Virus record (IMG/VR): IMGVR_UViG_3300029199_000001
Direction: 5' to 3' (one strand)
From: a virus
DNA length: 64,000 nt
Part shown: positions 12,061 to 39,098 of the stretch, one piece after another
How the letters are laid out: each line of letters starts with the position of its first letter
How positions within the stretch are numbered: position 1 is the stretch's first letter
Notes under the pieces: generated by a model
Told to the model about the DNA's origin: nothing
Seen by the model: only the letters and a program-made list of their open reading frames with translations
The model's database searches: none
Made by a program: the position numbers and the translations under genes

Positions 12061-12121
12061 GGTTGATTCCTTTTGTGGTTGCAGTTGTGTGTCTTTTTTT
12101 TTGAGTACTTAACTCACCTGA

Positions 12122-12130
12122 GTGATATAG
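12122..12130 (-). promoter_or_regulatory. CTATATCAC putative early promoter core
   Basis: Exact copy; 17-nt context identical to 42241-42257. Confidence 0.65.
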
Positions 12131-12144
12131 GTGTCAATTATGGA

Positions 12145-12387
12145 TCAGTCGTCCATTCCTTCGAACGCGTCCCCTTCTTCGTAAGTGTCGTTGGTGATGG
12201 CGTCATCGACATCTTCGCCAGCGGCGTAGACCTCGTCAAACACCCAATCCACCAACCAGTTTCGATCGTCATCGGTTTGATCTACCGATGTAACCCGGGC
12301 GGATTCAAACAGCTGTTCCAAGTTCTCACGCGCCTCAGCGGCGGTGGGCTCGTCTACCAAGATTTGTACCGTTGCAATAAAAGCCAT
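12145..12387 (-). CDS. acidic hypothetical protein (80 aa, MAFIATVQ...)
   Basis: ORF 12145..12498 trimmed to the ATG at 12387, with GAGGG RBS. Confidence 0.7.
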   Translation of the reverse strand: MAFIATVQILVDEPTAAEARENLEQLFESARVTSVDQTDDDRNWLVDWVFDEVYAAGEDVDDAITNDTYEEGDAFEGMDD

Positions 12388-12417
12388 GATGTGACCCTCG
12401 TTCAGATGCGGTATAGA

Positions 12418-12957
12418 GGCCTGCCCCGAAGGACAGGCCAAGATGCCATTTAAGCACCCCATAGGCGTCTTGAGTTTCGAGGCGGATCTCCGGATCACCC
12501 GCGCTGTAGAAAACGCCTACAGGCTGCCTGCTCAGGGATAGTTCCTTGTTTAGCACGAATAAGCCCAAGCGACAACTTGGCGACGACTGGTAAGGTACGT
12601 CGCCCGTACGGTTACGAGCGGTGTGACTACCAATCACACCACCCAGCAGGTGCCTAACATCTCCAACCGTAAACTCGATGAAGGGAGGCGCATGTGCCTC
12701 TTATGACTCCGTGGGAGTTTCGTTCCTTTTAACGTCGGGAACTCATCAGATAACACGACGTGTACATACCATCACACCCGGGGTAGTTTTTATGGGGTGA
12801 CGGAATAGCGGGCACCGCCGAAGCGGTGCCCGGGCTACCGTGGTTTTGGCCTTCGTAAAGACCGCATCTGTATTTGCAGATGCTTGGGACGGTAAAACCG
12901 CCTGAGTGTGTCCGCGAATCAAATTGTAAAAGATCGTGTCAGGACAGGTCTGACATA
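12418..12957 (-). ncRNA. putative large structured ncRNA/leader containing a hammerhead ribozyme
   Basis: More than 10 predicted helices, two UUCG tetraloops, G-U pairs mostly consistent with the minus strand, no credible ORF; boundaries approximate. Confidence 0.6.
12701..12761 (-). ncRNA. type I hammerhead ribozyme (predicted cleavage after GUC, between 12705 and 12704)
   Basis: UUAU-CUGAUGA-GUUCC(loop)GGAAC-GAAA-CUCC(CAC)GGAG-UC-AUAA; 5' ACGUCG pairs with loop II CGACGU. Confidence 0.9.
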
Positions 12958-12980
12958 ATATTGGGGATACCCTGGAAAAG

Positions 12981-13598
12981 TTAACCATGTAGCCATTCCC
13001 GGAACTCGCCCAATTTCAGTTGCTTGTAACACTCCCACAACGGGTCGGGGTGATTGGCTTTGATCAGATCAAACAGCAGTCGGGCCACATGATCATACCA
13101 GAGGTTGAGTTCGGGAATTCCCAAACACCGTGCCAATTCGACCGCTGTCCGTGTCCCGCCTTTCACGCTCCCTTTCCCATCGGGTTCGGCGTAGTAGACG
13201 ATGAAGTCCGAAGGCAAATCTAGGTTCTCCCCCAATACCTGGTAGCCGTTTCGGCCATGCAAGTTCAGGTGTGATTCTTTGAGGTTACCACCAGCAGGGT
13301 GAATCTTCTTGGCAATTTGACGCGCGACTTCCTGGTTGGACTTCTTCCCCAAGATGCGATTCTCGGGAACATCGATGCGCCCGTTAAACCCGGGCCAAGG
13401 AAGGTAGATCTCAATCTGTTCCGATTGGCTGGTCCCGGTGGCCCGCACGGCCCCGCGTTCGAATTCCGAGTCGGAGCCGTCGGCACCGCCTGACCGAAAC
13501 CCCCAACCCAACCGGACGAGGTAGCACGCAATGAAACTGAGCAGCCGTCCCCGTGGACCGGGAATGTCACGACTGCCCACACCGGTGAAGATTTTCAT
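12981..13598 (-). CDS. SLOG-superfamily (DprA/YspA-like) protein
   Basis: FTGVGSR, FRSGGADGSD and KGGTRTAVELA motifs. Confidence 0.8.
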   Translation of the reverse strand: MKIFTGVGSRDIPGPRGRLLSFIACYLVRLGWGFRSGGADGSDSEFERGAVRATGTSQSEQIEIYLPWPGFNGRIDVPENRILGKKSNQEVARQIAKKIHPAGGNLKESHLNLHGRNGYQVLGENLDLPSDFIVYYAEPDGKGSVKGGTRTAVELARCLGIPELNLWYDHVARLLFDLIKANHPDPLWECYKQLKLGEFREWLHG

Positions 13599-14973: not shown

Positions 14974-15390
14974 TTAACTGTTGATGTCGTCGAACAGTCC
15001 TTTCAGATGACGATGGACTTTACCCATCTCACCACCGTCGAGGCCTTTGACTTCAACAACGTTACGCACCGGCGTGGTGCTCTCGCGCTCGAAGTGTGCC
15101 CAGGAGGTGTTCTGGCCGTGGTTGTAGTTCACCGAGATTTCTTTCAGTTCGGGATGGGACTCGAACTTCTCAGCGGCTACCTGACCGGCCGCCAACGTGG
15201 TGGCTGCCAGCACTTCACTGTCATGCTTCTGGAGCTTCTTCACTTCGTCCAGAGTCAGACCCACCTCACCGTCTTCGAGCGTCTTCTCGTAGAAGTTCTT
15301 CGGCAGGCTGATCACACCTGATTTTTCGTCGAACTTCATCTTGTCGGAGATGCCAAACTTCTCGACGGATTTTTCGGTCTTAAGTGCCAT
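14974..15390 (-). CDS. hypothetical early protein (138 aa, MALKTEK...)
   Basis: ATG at 15390 after AAGAGAG; promoter motif upstream. Confidence 0.75.
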   Translation of the reverse strand: MALKTEKSVEKFGISDKMKFDEKSGVISLPKNFYEKTLEDGEVGLTLDEVKKLQKHDSEVLAATTLAAGQVAAEKFESHPELKEISVNYNHGQNTSWAHFERESTTPVRNVVEVKGLDGGEMGKVHRHLKGLFDDINS

Positions 15391-15498
15391 GTTACGGTTC
15401 TCTCTTTTTTGCAGTTGGTTTAGACTCATGAGTCGAGGCGTGTACCGCCTCATAGTTGCTGCCGTATAAGTAGTTTATTACAGCGGCAATGCACAGTG

Positions 15499-26499: not shown

Positions 26500-29400
26500 A
26501 TGCGTTTAAAACAATCGGTCTTTTACCGTCAAACCGGCGTGAGGCAACGCAACCATCTCATGCGCCCTCGCCTGATTCCCATGGAAAAGCTCATTCTACC
26601 GTACGAGGTGGTGTACCACTTCTGGCCGGTGGACACCGCCACCATGGGCCCGAATCCTCAAGACCCCCTGCTCAGCAATGTGAACGGACGACTGTTCATT
26701 GAACACGTCACCGAACTGGACGGACGCGAAGGTAACCCGCGCCGGACTGTACTGAACCCCACCATGTTGCAGAACGAGTTCCGTCGTAAGACCCGGGGTT
26801 TCAAACCCCTGCGTAAGGAACAGGCGCTGACCATCAACACCCGCAACGTGTTGATTGTGAATTACGGCATGCTGTCATCGCTGTATCGGTACATCCCGTC
26901 GTACAAGGTGCCTTACTTCCGCTGGAACAACGTGGCCCAGACGTTCTGGAACCGCGTGGCCGAGGCTGACCGTCGGTTTGGGTGGAACCAGTATTTGGAC
27001 CTGCACCTGCCGGAACGTCTCCCCACCCTGGAAGAGTTCAAACGGGCCAGTCGGACCCTGAACCAGAAGACGTTGGAGTTGTTCAACACCCAGGCGCAGT
27101 TCAACCTGTTGGATCTGTGGCAGTGGATGGGGGAAGAGCGCGAGAAGTCCAACCTGTCTGTACTGTCCGACGACGCTTTGAAGAAGGTCAACTTGCTGGT
27201 CAAACTCAAAGGGTATTTCTTCGTGATCAACCTGGGAGTGTTGGATGACTGGCGGAAAAACCCTGAGGACGATTCCGATACCGGCCTCGACGGTACTCAG
27301 ATGCAGCGGTACTTCCTGCGGTTACTACATGGCCTTCGGGACTTCATGAGTGGTGTAACCACACCCGAAGACAGCGCCGAGGAAGACGACGCTCAGGTTG
27401 GTGAGAACCCTGCCGACCCCAAAGAAACCCAGACGGTTGAGGTGGCTGAAACCGAACCCACTGAGGATGACAGTAAGTCCAAGGCGGACAAGGCCTCGTC
27501 TGTCAGCGAAGACAACGACGACGATTTATTGTTGCCGGAGTTTGAGGACGACGACATCGTGTTGCCTGAACCAGTCAGTGACATTGAAACGCCGGTCTTT
27601 GATTCCAACGAACTTCCCGAACAGCGGGAGCGCGAGTCTGAGAAAACGGTGACCTTGCCGGCTGAGGAAACCGGGCCGGTGGAAAGCATCACTGAGCCGC
27701 CCAGCTTTGAGGAAGGACTGGTTGATGGCATTGCCAAGCGGGCGTTTGAATTGCATGAAGCGGGACTGATGTCCGCCCGTGCGTACGAGCGTACCCTTGA
27801 AGACGCGAAAACGTACCAGTCTCTGAAAGACCCGTACGGCTCCGGCCGGTCGATGTCCGAGATGTTGACGGTCAGTGCTGAGGATTTGGAGCTGCCGGAA
27901 CCCACACCGGTACCGGACACCGACACAATTCCCGACAAGTCCATGCGGGAATCCAAGCTGAAAGGTATCCAACGCAAGTACGTTAAGGACGTACTGAAGA
28001 AAGATGTCATCAGTTCGGTCATGGCCGTCCAAAATCAGGGCGTGGCCATTAAGGACTACACGGTGGAAACGGTTCGCGATACCATGAACCACTATGAGAT
28101 CCATGCCGTGACCTTGAAACCGGTTCGAGGTCGCCAGTCGACCATCCGCTTTCGACTGCCGGTGGTGGACAAAGACGGACGCTTTATTTCCAACGGTGTT
28201 ACTAACCGAATGCGTCTGCAACGGGCCGACGTTCCGATCCGAAAGGTGAACCCGTCTCGGGTGGCGTTGACGTCTTACTACAATAAGACTTTCATCGACC
28301 GTTCCGAACGGAGCGTGAACAACTACGAGAAATGGTTGATCAAACAGATCACGTCTCGTGGCATGGACCCGGAAAACGAAACCATCACCAACCTGAAGCT
28401 GTCGAACGTGTTTGTGAAGACCGAACACCTGCCACGGATCTACAGCTTGTTGGCCAAACGGTTTGTCCGGTTCGACGCCGGGAACTACGAACTCTACTTT
28501 GACTACCAACGACGGGCGGAGCATTTCAAAGACACCTACGGCATTGACGTGGCTGAGGTGGAAACCGATCAGCAGGTGCTGGTGGGTATGTACAACCGCT
28601 ATCCGTTGGTGGTGGACGCGTACAACACCTTTTATGTCATGACTAACGATGGCATGGAGGTCATTGGTACGGTGCACGACCTGCTGGGCATTGACAGTCA
28701 GAAGGCCCCGCTGGAAATCGTGGAAATGGGCATTGCCAACAAAACGTTCCCCATTGGGTTCGTGTTGGCATACCACCTAGGCCTGTCGGAACTGATCAAG
28801 TACCTGGGCTGTGAAGTAAACCGCCTGCGACGTGGTGAGCGACGGCAGACGCAATCCGACGAGTACACGTTGATCTTCGAAGACGAGGTGTTGGTATTCT
28901 CCCGACTGGATCAACGGGCCACCATGGTCTTGGCCGGTCTTAACCGGTACCACCAAACACTGAAGCAATACTCGGTGTGGGACTTTGATCGCAAGGACGT
29001 CTTTTACCGGGTGGTCGAGGATGCCGGTTTGGGCGTTCGTTACCTGCGGGAGATGGACACGTTGTTCCAAGCGTGGGTGGACCCGATCACTCGGGGTCTG
29101 TTGGAAGACATGGGCGAGCCCACCGAGTTCCTACCACTCCTACTGCGGGCCGTGGAATTGCTGCAGACCGATTTCTCACCGGAAGAGGTCAGTGGTGAAT
29201 ACATGCGGTACCGGGGTTACGAGCGTTTGGCGGGCATGGTCTACGGGGAATTGACCCGGGCGGCCAAAACCTTCAACGCCCGTGCCAGTGTGGGGGAGAA
29301 CGCGGTGGAACTGAACCCGCACGCGGTGTGGCAGAAGATCGTCCAAGACCCGTCGGTGGCCATTGTGGAAGACTCCAACCCGATTGCCAACCTGCGCGAG

Positions 29401-38223: not shown

Positions 38224-38979
38224 TTATCCCTTATCGCGTTTAGACGGGGGTGTTATAGATAGTGGATCACGGATGGTTACCGTGTGCAGACTGATGTCCG
38301 TGGGATCTTTGGACCAACGCATTTCGAGGATGTAGTCCTCCTGCTTCGGTCCCAAGGCCACCAAGCCTCGCCGGAACACGTTCCACGACATGCGTGGGGC
38401 GAGTAAGTCGCGATGCAATGCATTGATCGCACTGTTGATCTCCTGACGCGTCTGCGGAACACCCTGCAATGGGTTCTTGACATATTCCTCCAACAACGCG
38501 TTCCAACGGATCACGTCGATTTCTTCCTCCGTAACAATCCGACGGAAAAGGCGGGCCAGTGTGTTGGCTGGCTTTTTCATGTCGCTGAACACGTTGCTTT
38601 CCTCAGGCCCAAACGTATTCAGTTCGGGATCGGCTTCGTCTTCAGCGGGATCAATCTTAATCGGGTAACGCGAGACCCGACCGCTTTTCCACGTCAGTTG
38701 TATGGTCAGTGTTGCCGACACAGGGTTGAGAAAATCGACCCCTTTCTTGAACGTGGCCCACGTGAAATCGTCGTGGGTTAATGCCTTGTTCAAGTTGCCT
38801 TTGTCGGCCTTCTTTTTGTTGTGAGGTTTTTCAAAGAATAACTTTGCCCTCTTGTTCCACGTAAACTGGTTGACCTTGCGCCACAACAGGGTGTTGCGGA
38901 ACAGGTAACACAGTATGCCCTGCGCTCGGTTCGTTCCTTTTAAGGGATCGGCGAGCAGATCTTTTACATCTTGATTCAT
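38224..38979 (-). CDS. conserved jumbo-phage protein with two internally repeated domains (251 aa)
   Basis: Halves share an L--LFR...W...NL--AL......W--F--G---L-P pattern. Confidence 0.65.
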   Translation of the reverse strand: MNQDVKDLLADPLKGTNRAQGILCYLFRNTLLWRKVNQFTWNKRAKLFFEKPHNKKKADKGNLNKALTHDDFTWATFKKGVDFLNPVSATLTIQLTWKSGRVSRYPIKIDPAEDEADPELNTFGPEESNVFSDMKKPANTLARLFRRIVTEEEIDVIRWNALLEEYVKNPLQGVPQTRQEINSAINALHRDLLAPRMSWNVFRRGLVALGPKQEDYILEMRWSKDPTDISLHTVTIRDPLSITPPSKRDKG

Positions 38980-39098
38980 TTTATTATCACCCTACGGTGC
39001 TGGGCCAGACTGACCCGGTTTGTGAAAACACAAACGACGTGCGACTGACGCCTTTATACAGTCGCAATAGGAATCATTATGTCATCGTTTGACCTCTG

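Follow-up and report, generated by a model that had tools for sequence, protein, structure and literature searches.

The intergenic region at 12957-12418 (minus strand) of the window, as we call the whole stretch of 64,000 nucleotides analyzed here, is interpreted by us, with moderate confidence and from comparative sequence analysis, as a non-coding RNA gene in its own right, belonging to a phiKZ-like jumbo phage of the nucleus-forming type: a unit that would run from a TATG promoter to a terminator and that comprises a conserved 5' core and lineage-specific accretions, including a hammerhead ribozyme. Judged by these comparisons, the RNA family is uncatalogued and modular, and its ribozyme is credible but accessory. 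The earlier note on this DNA had described one ~540-nt RNA centered on the ribozyme; a structured non-coding region, the TATG start and a credible type I hammerhead all stand, but a single conserved unit built around the ribozyme does not, as the hammerhead is found in two of seven lineages (the window and L006) and the multibranch domain in the window lineage only.

The phage genome is a 231,818-bp IMG/VR record with direct terminal repeats, in which the locus lies on the minus strand. The beta subunit of its virion RNA polymerase is 47% identical to the counterparts in the Pseudomonas phages Noxifer and PhiPA3, which identifies the phage as a distant, uncultivated phiKZ-like jumbo phage. It is present in metagenomic DNA runs of gas-well, subsurface, oil-facility, freshwater and marine origin, and contigs from four of the DNA runs at the locus yielded identical fragments only; a search for RNA-seq runs that contain the locus gave none. 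On one side the RNA locus is bordered by a DprA-like/SLOG gene (12981-13598, minus; phrog_768), while its downstream neighbor, which lies outside the RNA, is an 80-aa acidic ORF (12145-12387, minus; RBS GAGGG at 12399-12395) that gave zero family matches and whose AF2 model (pLDDT 59.5) is too poor for structure searching. The ORFs that overlap the RNA region were found to match no family and are not conserved; two small ones, MSDLS starting from the TATG and a 19-aa frame after AAGAGG, were rejected as genes on the latter ground. In genome G000, a crude gene call leaves further large ORF-less gaps at 129953-130707 (755 nt) and 81560-82156 (597 nt), which could hold more non-coding RNAs.

The minimum free energy computed for a 591-nt stretch is -229.6 kcal/mol, compared with -189.9 +/- 7.4 kcal/mol for dinucleotide shuffles (z -5.37), none of 100 shuffles being as good. 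An excess of folding is also exhibited by four relatives (z -3.7 to -4.7) and spans 200-540 nt in the window and its relatives. Thus, the description of a ~540-nt highly structured non-coding region is borne out (z -5.4), and its named features were all located at the positions given for them. No gathering-level match to Rfam, including the group I introns, was found across the 64-kb window, in which only chance-level matches appear at E up to 10 and no covariance model of GOLLD, ROOL, HEARO or a riboswitch family finds a match; together with the absence of any tRNA or tmRNA prediction by ARAGORN, this agrees with the earlier note, which did not recognize the RNA as tmRNA, RNase P, SRP, 6S or an intron.

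Starting from the flanking proteins, we reached four other lineages in which the gene order is the same, namely L002-L005 and L006 (via the SLOG protein) and L012 and L013 (via the 80-aa ORF), while L014-L018 are nearly identical to the window. Distances among the five lineages are roughly equal, with amino acid identities of 61-71% for the SLOG protein, 75-85% for the 80-aa ORF (69-85% in the per-lineage comparison) and 85-91% for an RNase H-like protein, and their intergenic gap amounts to 593, 471, 351, 266 and 244 nt. Common to all five are ~160 nt comprising the TATG, the hairpin P1, an unpaired stretch, the hairpins P2-P5, and, just before the RBS of the ORF, a final hairpin with a U-rich tail. 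A blastn search of the locus against 50,697 phage records gave zero matches, and four DNA patterns run over IMG/VR (two of them also over JGI metagenomes) retrieved only chance matches (L009-L011, of which L010 is inside a coding region) that were discarded.

P1, the 5'-terminal hairpin UGUCAG/CUGACA (12937-12955, minus), has 94% of its cells paired in the five lineages. It is followed by the single-stranded linker J1/2 (12903-12936, minus), to which 13 of the 19 invariant alignment columns belong (GAUC.UU.ACAA..UG region). No sequence of the family is better conserved than the linker core, CGAUCUUUUACAAUUUGAUUCG (12936-12915), which is unpaired in every single-sequence fold of the window and its relatives. 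Its lineage-specific extension UUCGCGGA (12918-12911) is found only in the two lineages that carry a hammerhead. For the next element, the earlier note had proposed a three-way junction closed by GGUUUU/AAAACC; this closure is displaced by the local hairpin P2, GGCGG-UUUUA-CCGUC (12888-12902, minus), with 90.5% of cells paired versus 60.7% for the junction helix over the five lineages, and with two pairs changed on both sides. Compensatory changes are carried by five pairs of P3 (12883-12864, minus), one pair of P4 (12863-12848, minus) and four pairs of P5 (GGGCACCGC-UUCG-GCGGUGCCC, 12839-12804, minus; 98.7% paired), and P3 is fully re-coded in L012 (GUACCUU/AAGGUAC) and in L013. A conserved linker, AAAACCAC, joins the hairpins within P3-P5 (12804-12883). 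The P1-P5 model as a whole has standard pairs in 91.8% of its cells and two-sided changes in 13 of its 40 pairs, whereas a control in which the partners were slid by one to three columns gives 35-50% paired cells and at most five two-sided changes; coming from five related sequences, this covariation is supportive rather than a proof, and the common descent of all seven clear lineages causes shuffle-based covariation controls to overstate significance. A pseudoknot between J1/2 and J4/5 (UUUG/CAAA), spotted by eye, was abandoned, as it is inconsistent across the lineages and clashes with P4.

Further genomes of this clade in IMG/VR were opened by the many relatives of the candidate target gene described below, and the covariance model R1 identified reduced versions of the RNA in two of them, G001 and G004. 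The unit of G001 is located directly downstream of a SLOG gene and comprises TATG, P1 (GAGAC/GUCUU), AGUUCUUUCACAAUUUA, P2, unrelated hairpins and a terminator, after which come a true TTATG and another acidic ORF, of 129 aa. The unit of G004 is located between two other genes and comprises P1 (GUUAGAC/GUCUGAC), UGCUCUUUCACAACUU, P2, P3, P4, and a terminator with TTTATGCCG. Both retain the UCUUUNACAA motif of J1/2, and the hammerhead is absent from both; P3-P5, present in the five closest lineages, are partial in G004 and absent in G001. Hence all seven clear lineages exhibit a phiKZ-type TATG start, P1, the near-invariant single-stranded UCUUUNACAAYUU, and P2. The core model R2, built from these seven sequences, gives additional borderline matches, which carry CGUUCUUUAACAA and in which the UCUUUNACAA motif recurs, in G005 and G007. 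Both models detect one copy per genome and their matches are confined to this clade, with nothing convincing in phiKZ, PhiPA3, 201phi2-1, Noxifer or PS119XW; a full-length R1 match of 17.4 bits in the AT-rich gp53/gp54 gap of 201phi2-1 (29025-29168; L026 1501-1644) is probably due to chance and was not retained. As a separate observation, three acidic ORFs (L044 328-1347), paralogous and arranged in tandem, follow the RNA unit of G001, and all of them end in ...(Y/F)(S/N)(Q/K)INS; ORF 14974-15453 of the window has a similar end, ...DDINS.

From the computed matches to promoter and terminator motifs we infer transcription and termination of the unit. The promoter region (12954-12984, minus) contains the TATG at 12957-12954, reported previously and confirmed here as a motif match that is invariant in seven lineages, with G12954 as the putative +1 and with TTAACT and AATAT conserved upstream. 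The phiKZ late promoter is a TATG whose G is the +1 (PMC4666361), and transcription of the RNA would start at G12954 of this late-type promoter. A sigma70-like match, TTAACT-18-TATTAT, is also present upstream of the RNA, but is less likely to be the element used. At least 13 gene boundaries in the genome consist of a GC-rich hairpin followed by YTT-TATG-NCG ('hairpin + TTTATGNCG'), i.e. a terminator abutting a late promoter; the RNA starts at TATGTCA and ends in such a boundary module. Its terminator, GGCCUGUCC-UUCG-GGGCAGGCC with the tail UCUAUACCG, occupies 12409-12439 (minus), and transcription would end at the intrinsic-terminator hairpin 12439-12418, which is of the same kind as those closing protein genes in the genome. 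A hairpin and a U-rich tail are present at the RNA end in all lineages, with four different stem sequences. In 201phi2-1, small RNAs are likewise delimited by a start site and, a short distance on, a termination site (PMC11512511).

The boundary module that precedes the 80-aa ORF has TATA or TATT in place of TATG in all five close lineages, and the ORF, devoid of a canonical TATG, may therefore depend on read-through from the RNA promoter. The sequence after the terminator was also considered as a member of a second promoter-like class, of which the genome contains ~20 copies (aaTTGACa-N-TCTATATCAC-N5-RTG) and which resembles the phiKZ middle promoters, but this was rejected, as the upstream TTGACA is missing and the spacing is wrong. 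Copies of that class (also written aaTTGACa-N-(T)CTATATCAC-N5-RTG; compare the phiKZ AAanTTACc at -24) are found 40-95 nt upstream of many genes, and one is located at 12105-12135 (minus), after the stop codon of the 80-aa ORF.

In the model that we propose, the functional core of the RNA would be its first ~70 nt, i.e. P1, a ~20-nt invariant single-stranded stretch CGAUCUUUUACAAUUUG, and P2, to which three covarying hairpins, P3-P5, would have been added in the five closest lineages. The remainder would be lineage-specific accretion, which in the window lineage separates the core from the terminator by a type I hammerhead and another ~290 nt of hairpins. The exposed invariant stretch would most likely act through base pairing or factor binding.

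The principal argument for regarding the RNA as a cis-acting leader (5' UTR) of the 80-aa ORF comes from the promoter-like element after the terminator, which lacks the +1 G (TATA/TATT) in each of the five close lineages. In such a leader, the terminator just before the RBS would be an attenuator or a riboswitch-like device, a signal would be sensed, or a factor bound, by the 5' domain, and the hammerhead would provide the mRNA with a new 5'-OH. In such an arrangement one would readily understand why the distance from the end of the terminator to the RBS is 20-30 nt in each of these five lineages, and there are precedents both in 201phi2-1, where most small RNAs are 5'UTR-derived through premature termination (PMC11512511), and in prophages, where hammerheads are found directly upstream of the acidic anti-restriction gene ardA (PMC3088659). 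However, the genes that follow the RNA in G001 and G004 are unrelated ones with a TATG of their own, and the occurrence of the hallmark combination of TATG, P1, UCUUUNACAAYUU and P2 before different genes in these distant relatives argues for an RNA gene in its own right, which is not tied to the 80-aa ORF. Moreover, the distance from the conserved domain to the terminator ranges between ~30 and 380 nt. Neither a constant association with one downstream gene nor an expression platform coupled to the conserved domain is what we found; no conserved antiterminator pairing was seen by inspection, and no riboswitch family matched. An antiterminator formed by the P1 loop was dismissed, as in the window the loop is identical rather than complementary to the 5' arm of the terminator, and the similarity is not conserved. 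The ribozyme-gated leader entertained in the earlier note is thereby weakened, and we consider the leader reading unlikely. Another view would place the function at the level of DNA, the locus being a cluster of promoter, terminator or protein-binding sites: the conserved block does begin exactly at the promoter, and phiKZ late promoters require undefined downstream sequence (PMC4666361). This view has, in our opinion, very little chance of being correct, as G-U and compensatory changes on one strand keep the pairs intact, an excess of folding is seen across 200-540 nt, and the helices are capped by the tetraloops UUCG, GUGA and UACG.

The type I hammerhead occupies positions 12701-12761 (minus). 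Read 5' to 3' on the minus strand, its elements follow in the order UUAU (stem I), CUGAUGA (12749-12743), GUUCC and GGAAC around an 11-nt loop (stem II, 12742-12738/12726-12722), GAAA (12721-12718), (A)CUCC-CAC-GGAG(U) (stem III, 12718-12706), C17, and AUAA. The conserved core is complete in the window (CUGAUGA, GAAA, and GUC at 12707-12705); stem II has 5 bp, stem III has 5 bp and the loop CAC, stem I has at least 4 bp and is open, and the A15.1-U16.1 pair is present, which gives the type I topology with cleavage predicted between C12705 and A12704. The 5' flank ACGUCG (12761-12756) is complementary to CGACGU in loop II (12737-12732), allowing a 6-bp pseudoknot of the sort that is common in microbial hammerheads (PMC3088659), and a nested fold of the isolated hammerhead prefers the helix between the flank and loop II, as expected for a pseudoknot. 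The full type I descriptor matches once in the 232-kb genome and nowhere in 40 genomes simulated with a first-order Markov model, and the locus is also the sole CUGANGA / stem II / GAAA site in the genome. The Rfam Hammerhead_3 model scores 17.5 bits (E 1.3), below its gathering score of 48.5, and Hammerhead_1, Hammerhead_II, HH9 and HH10 are absent from the Rfam matches at E up to 10. The hammerhead of L006 has a CCGAUGA core (U4C) and an A.G mismatch at 15.2/16.2 in stem III, while stem I differs from that of the window by the compensatory change from UUAU/AUAA to CUAU/AUAG, and a C-G pair of the pseudoknot is replaced by G-C (GGUCG/CGACC in L006). The hammerhead remains below the Rfam threshold and is missing in five of seven lineages, and in L006 it carries both U4C and a mismatch, so that selection may not be acting on ribozyme activity. 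In the full-length minimum free energy fold, UGAUGA of the core (12743-12748) pairs with the downstream UCAUCG (12676-12681), a possible inactive conformer; this pairing is absent in L006.

The other modules, too, differ between lineages. Between the core and the ribozyme, the window lineage has the hairpin CCGUCAC/GUGAUGG (12769-12803, minus), recognized from sequence and fold, where L006 has a different hairpin. The hairpin GAGGC/GCCUC (12685-12700, minus), at the 5' end of the predicted 3' cleavage product, is shared by the window and L006. The multibranch domain closed by CCUGCU/AGCAGG (12523-12654, minus) is a ~100-130-nt insertion specific to the window lineage and identical in L014-L018; it aligns only to gaps in all other lineages, and its helices consequently have no comparative support. 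Covariation across the whole fold, to which the earlier note had pointed as a check, is thus present in part: it is seen in P1-P5, with the 13 two-sided pair changes, but not in the multibranch domain. Finally, a long-range helix between CCUGUAGGCGU (12523-12513) and ACGCCUAUGGG (12468-12458; both minus) is found in the window, L006 and L002, encloses an extra hairpin in the window, and exhibits one C-G to U-A change (CCUGUAGGYGU/ACRCCUAUGGG).

From the hammerhead motif we infer self-cleavage after C12705, which would release a ~250-nt 5' RNA that contains the core and ends in a 2',3'-cyclic phosphate, as well as a ~290-nt 3' RNA with a 5'-OH, and would in effect trim the enlarged transcript toward the size found in insert-free lineages. 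The patchy occurrence of the modules among roughly equidistant lineages, the damaged core of the L006 hammerhead and the restriction of the multibranch domain to one lineage would be expected if only the conserved core were functional, the hammerhead and the 3' modules being selfish or neutral insertions and ribozyme processing incidental. To this we assign a small probability: the same hammerhead sequence is found nowhere else in IMG/VR with a hammerhead-specific pattern (two bacterial-genome matches are chance sequences and not hammerheads), no sign of mobility is evident, stem I and the pseudoknot have changed in a compensatory manner between the window and L006, and UUCGCGGA is restricted to the hammerhead lineages, its L006 copy pairing with UCCGCGAG in the 3' module. 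The window has UCCCUGAG as the partner of UUCGCGGA, with one mismatch, and this predicted pairing is suggestive of an insert that is structurally integrated through docking onto the core. A circular or religated product, an option raised in the earlier note, draws its sole support from the general precedent of hammerheads in circular RNAs; we regard it as scarcely credible, given that there is only one ribozyme in the unit and in the genome, that the 3' end would be the 3'-OH of a terminator, and that a search of the phage for an RtcB or Rnl2-type RNA ligase returned none.

Our preferred reading of a separate RNA gene with an exposed invariant stretch leaves room for action in trans, which would be deduced from complementarity. 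The best candidate partner of that stretch, a lead and not a finding, is located at 38957-38978 (minus) and covers the start codon and codons 2-8 (AUG AAU CAA GAU GUA AAA GAU C) of a 251-aa gene (38979-38224; phrog_4910, homologous to PhiPA3 gp200), antisense to J1/2. A 22-nt stretch of J1/2 is complementary to it at 18 of 22 nt, and the next-best site in the genome reaches 15 of 22. In 5 of 300 trials a shuffled seed attains 18/22 at some site in the genome, and the position of the site on a start codon in sense orientation is estimated to be a further 2% coincidence. The duplex energy of -23.6 to -27.5 kcal/mol was reached by 0/100 and 0/500 shuffles. The analysis of cognate pairs covered L012 (with L031, same sample), L013 (with L062, same sample), G001 and G004; in these tests, which are not independent, the numbers of shuffles (out of 500) at least as good as the real pair are 0 for the window, 6 for L013, 8 for L012, 11 for G001 and 166 for G004, and the pairing weakens in the other lineages. 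At two synonymous positions in the core of the duplex several changes keep the pair (U-A, G-C, G.U; A-U to U-A in G005), and covariation at third codon positions is equivocal, with 8 of 14 cells paired versus ~5 expected. The window and L031 do not differ in the first 20 nt of the target, while the genes are 79% identical overall and 54% at third codon positions. The L002 seed, GAUCCUUAAC, predicts a target GUU AAG GAU C. The RBS of the target gene (~38985-39000, minus) is itself located in a small conserved hairpin, CACC-GUA-GGUG, with covarying stems UACC/GGUA and GACC/GGUC in L031-L043, which may be a translational operator.

Tentatively, and as a minority view of our own, the RNA may be a late trans-acting antisense RNA, whose seed would block translation of a conserved phiKZ-family gene, the PhiPA3 gp200 homolog, by pairing from the Shine-Dalgarno region to codon 8, whose scaffold would accrete modules, and whose hammerhead would trim the transcript to the active 5' RNA. 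If the pairing with this conserved gene is true, it would be a case of a jumbo phage regulating its own core gene by a small RNA.

Among known systems, the ribozyme most closely resembles the type I hammerheads of phages and prophages with a pseudoknot between loop II and the stem I flank (Perreault et al. 2011, PMC3088659; Rfam clan CL00010), with which it shares the core, the three stems, the open stem I, the 6-bp pseudoknot, and an intergenic place in a phage upstream of a small acidic gene. However, the window copy falls far below the Rfam thresholds, is embedded in a larger conserved non-coding RNA instead of flanking mRNAs, and occurs in only two of seven homologous units, one of them with a U4C core. 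The phiKZ-like small RNAs delimited by promoter and terminator that were detected by ONT-cappable-seq (the 201phi2-1 sRNAs and sRNAgp182 of phiKZ; PMC11512511) are similar in phage group, in being short promoter-terminator units upstream of a gene, and in their conservation among relatives. In contrast to them, the present RNA belongs to another sequence family and another genomic place, was not found in phiKZ, PhiPA3, 201phi2-1, Noxifer or PS119XW, and varies in length from roughly 170 to 540 nt across lineages by added modules that include a ribozyme. The large ornate phage-associated RNAs (GOLLD, ROOL, HEARO, raiA and OLE) are resembled by the window lineage's version, a phage-encoded non-coding RNA of multiple helices and several hundred nucleotides, but no model of them matches, only ~70-160 nt are conserved here, and the large size is specific to a lineage. 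With trans-acting antisense RNAs that block translation initiation it shares a single-stranded seed between hairpins, an end at a terminator and near-perfect complementarity to a start codon region, with the difference that the target here is a candidate and its covariation equivocal.

To our knowledge, the mapping of non-coding RNAs in phiKZ-like phages has only just begun, and we know of none with an established function. The RNA family described here appears tractable, with a compact and delimited core, size variants (~170-540 nt) that constitute a natural deletion series, and an optional ribozyme, and it offers a case for two questions: what role such RNAs play, and why hammerheads sit in the intergenic regions of phages.
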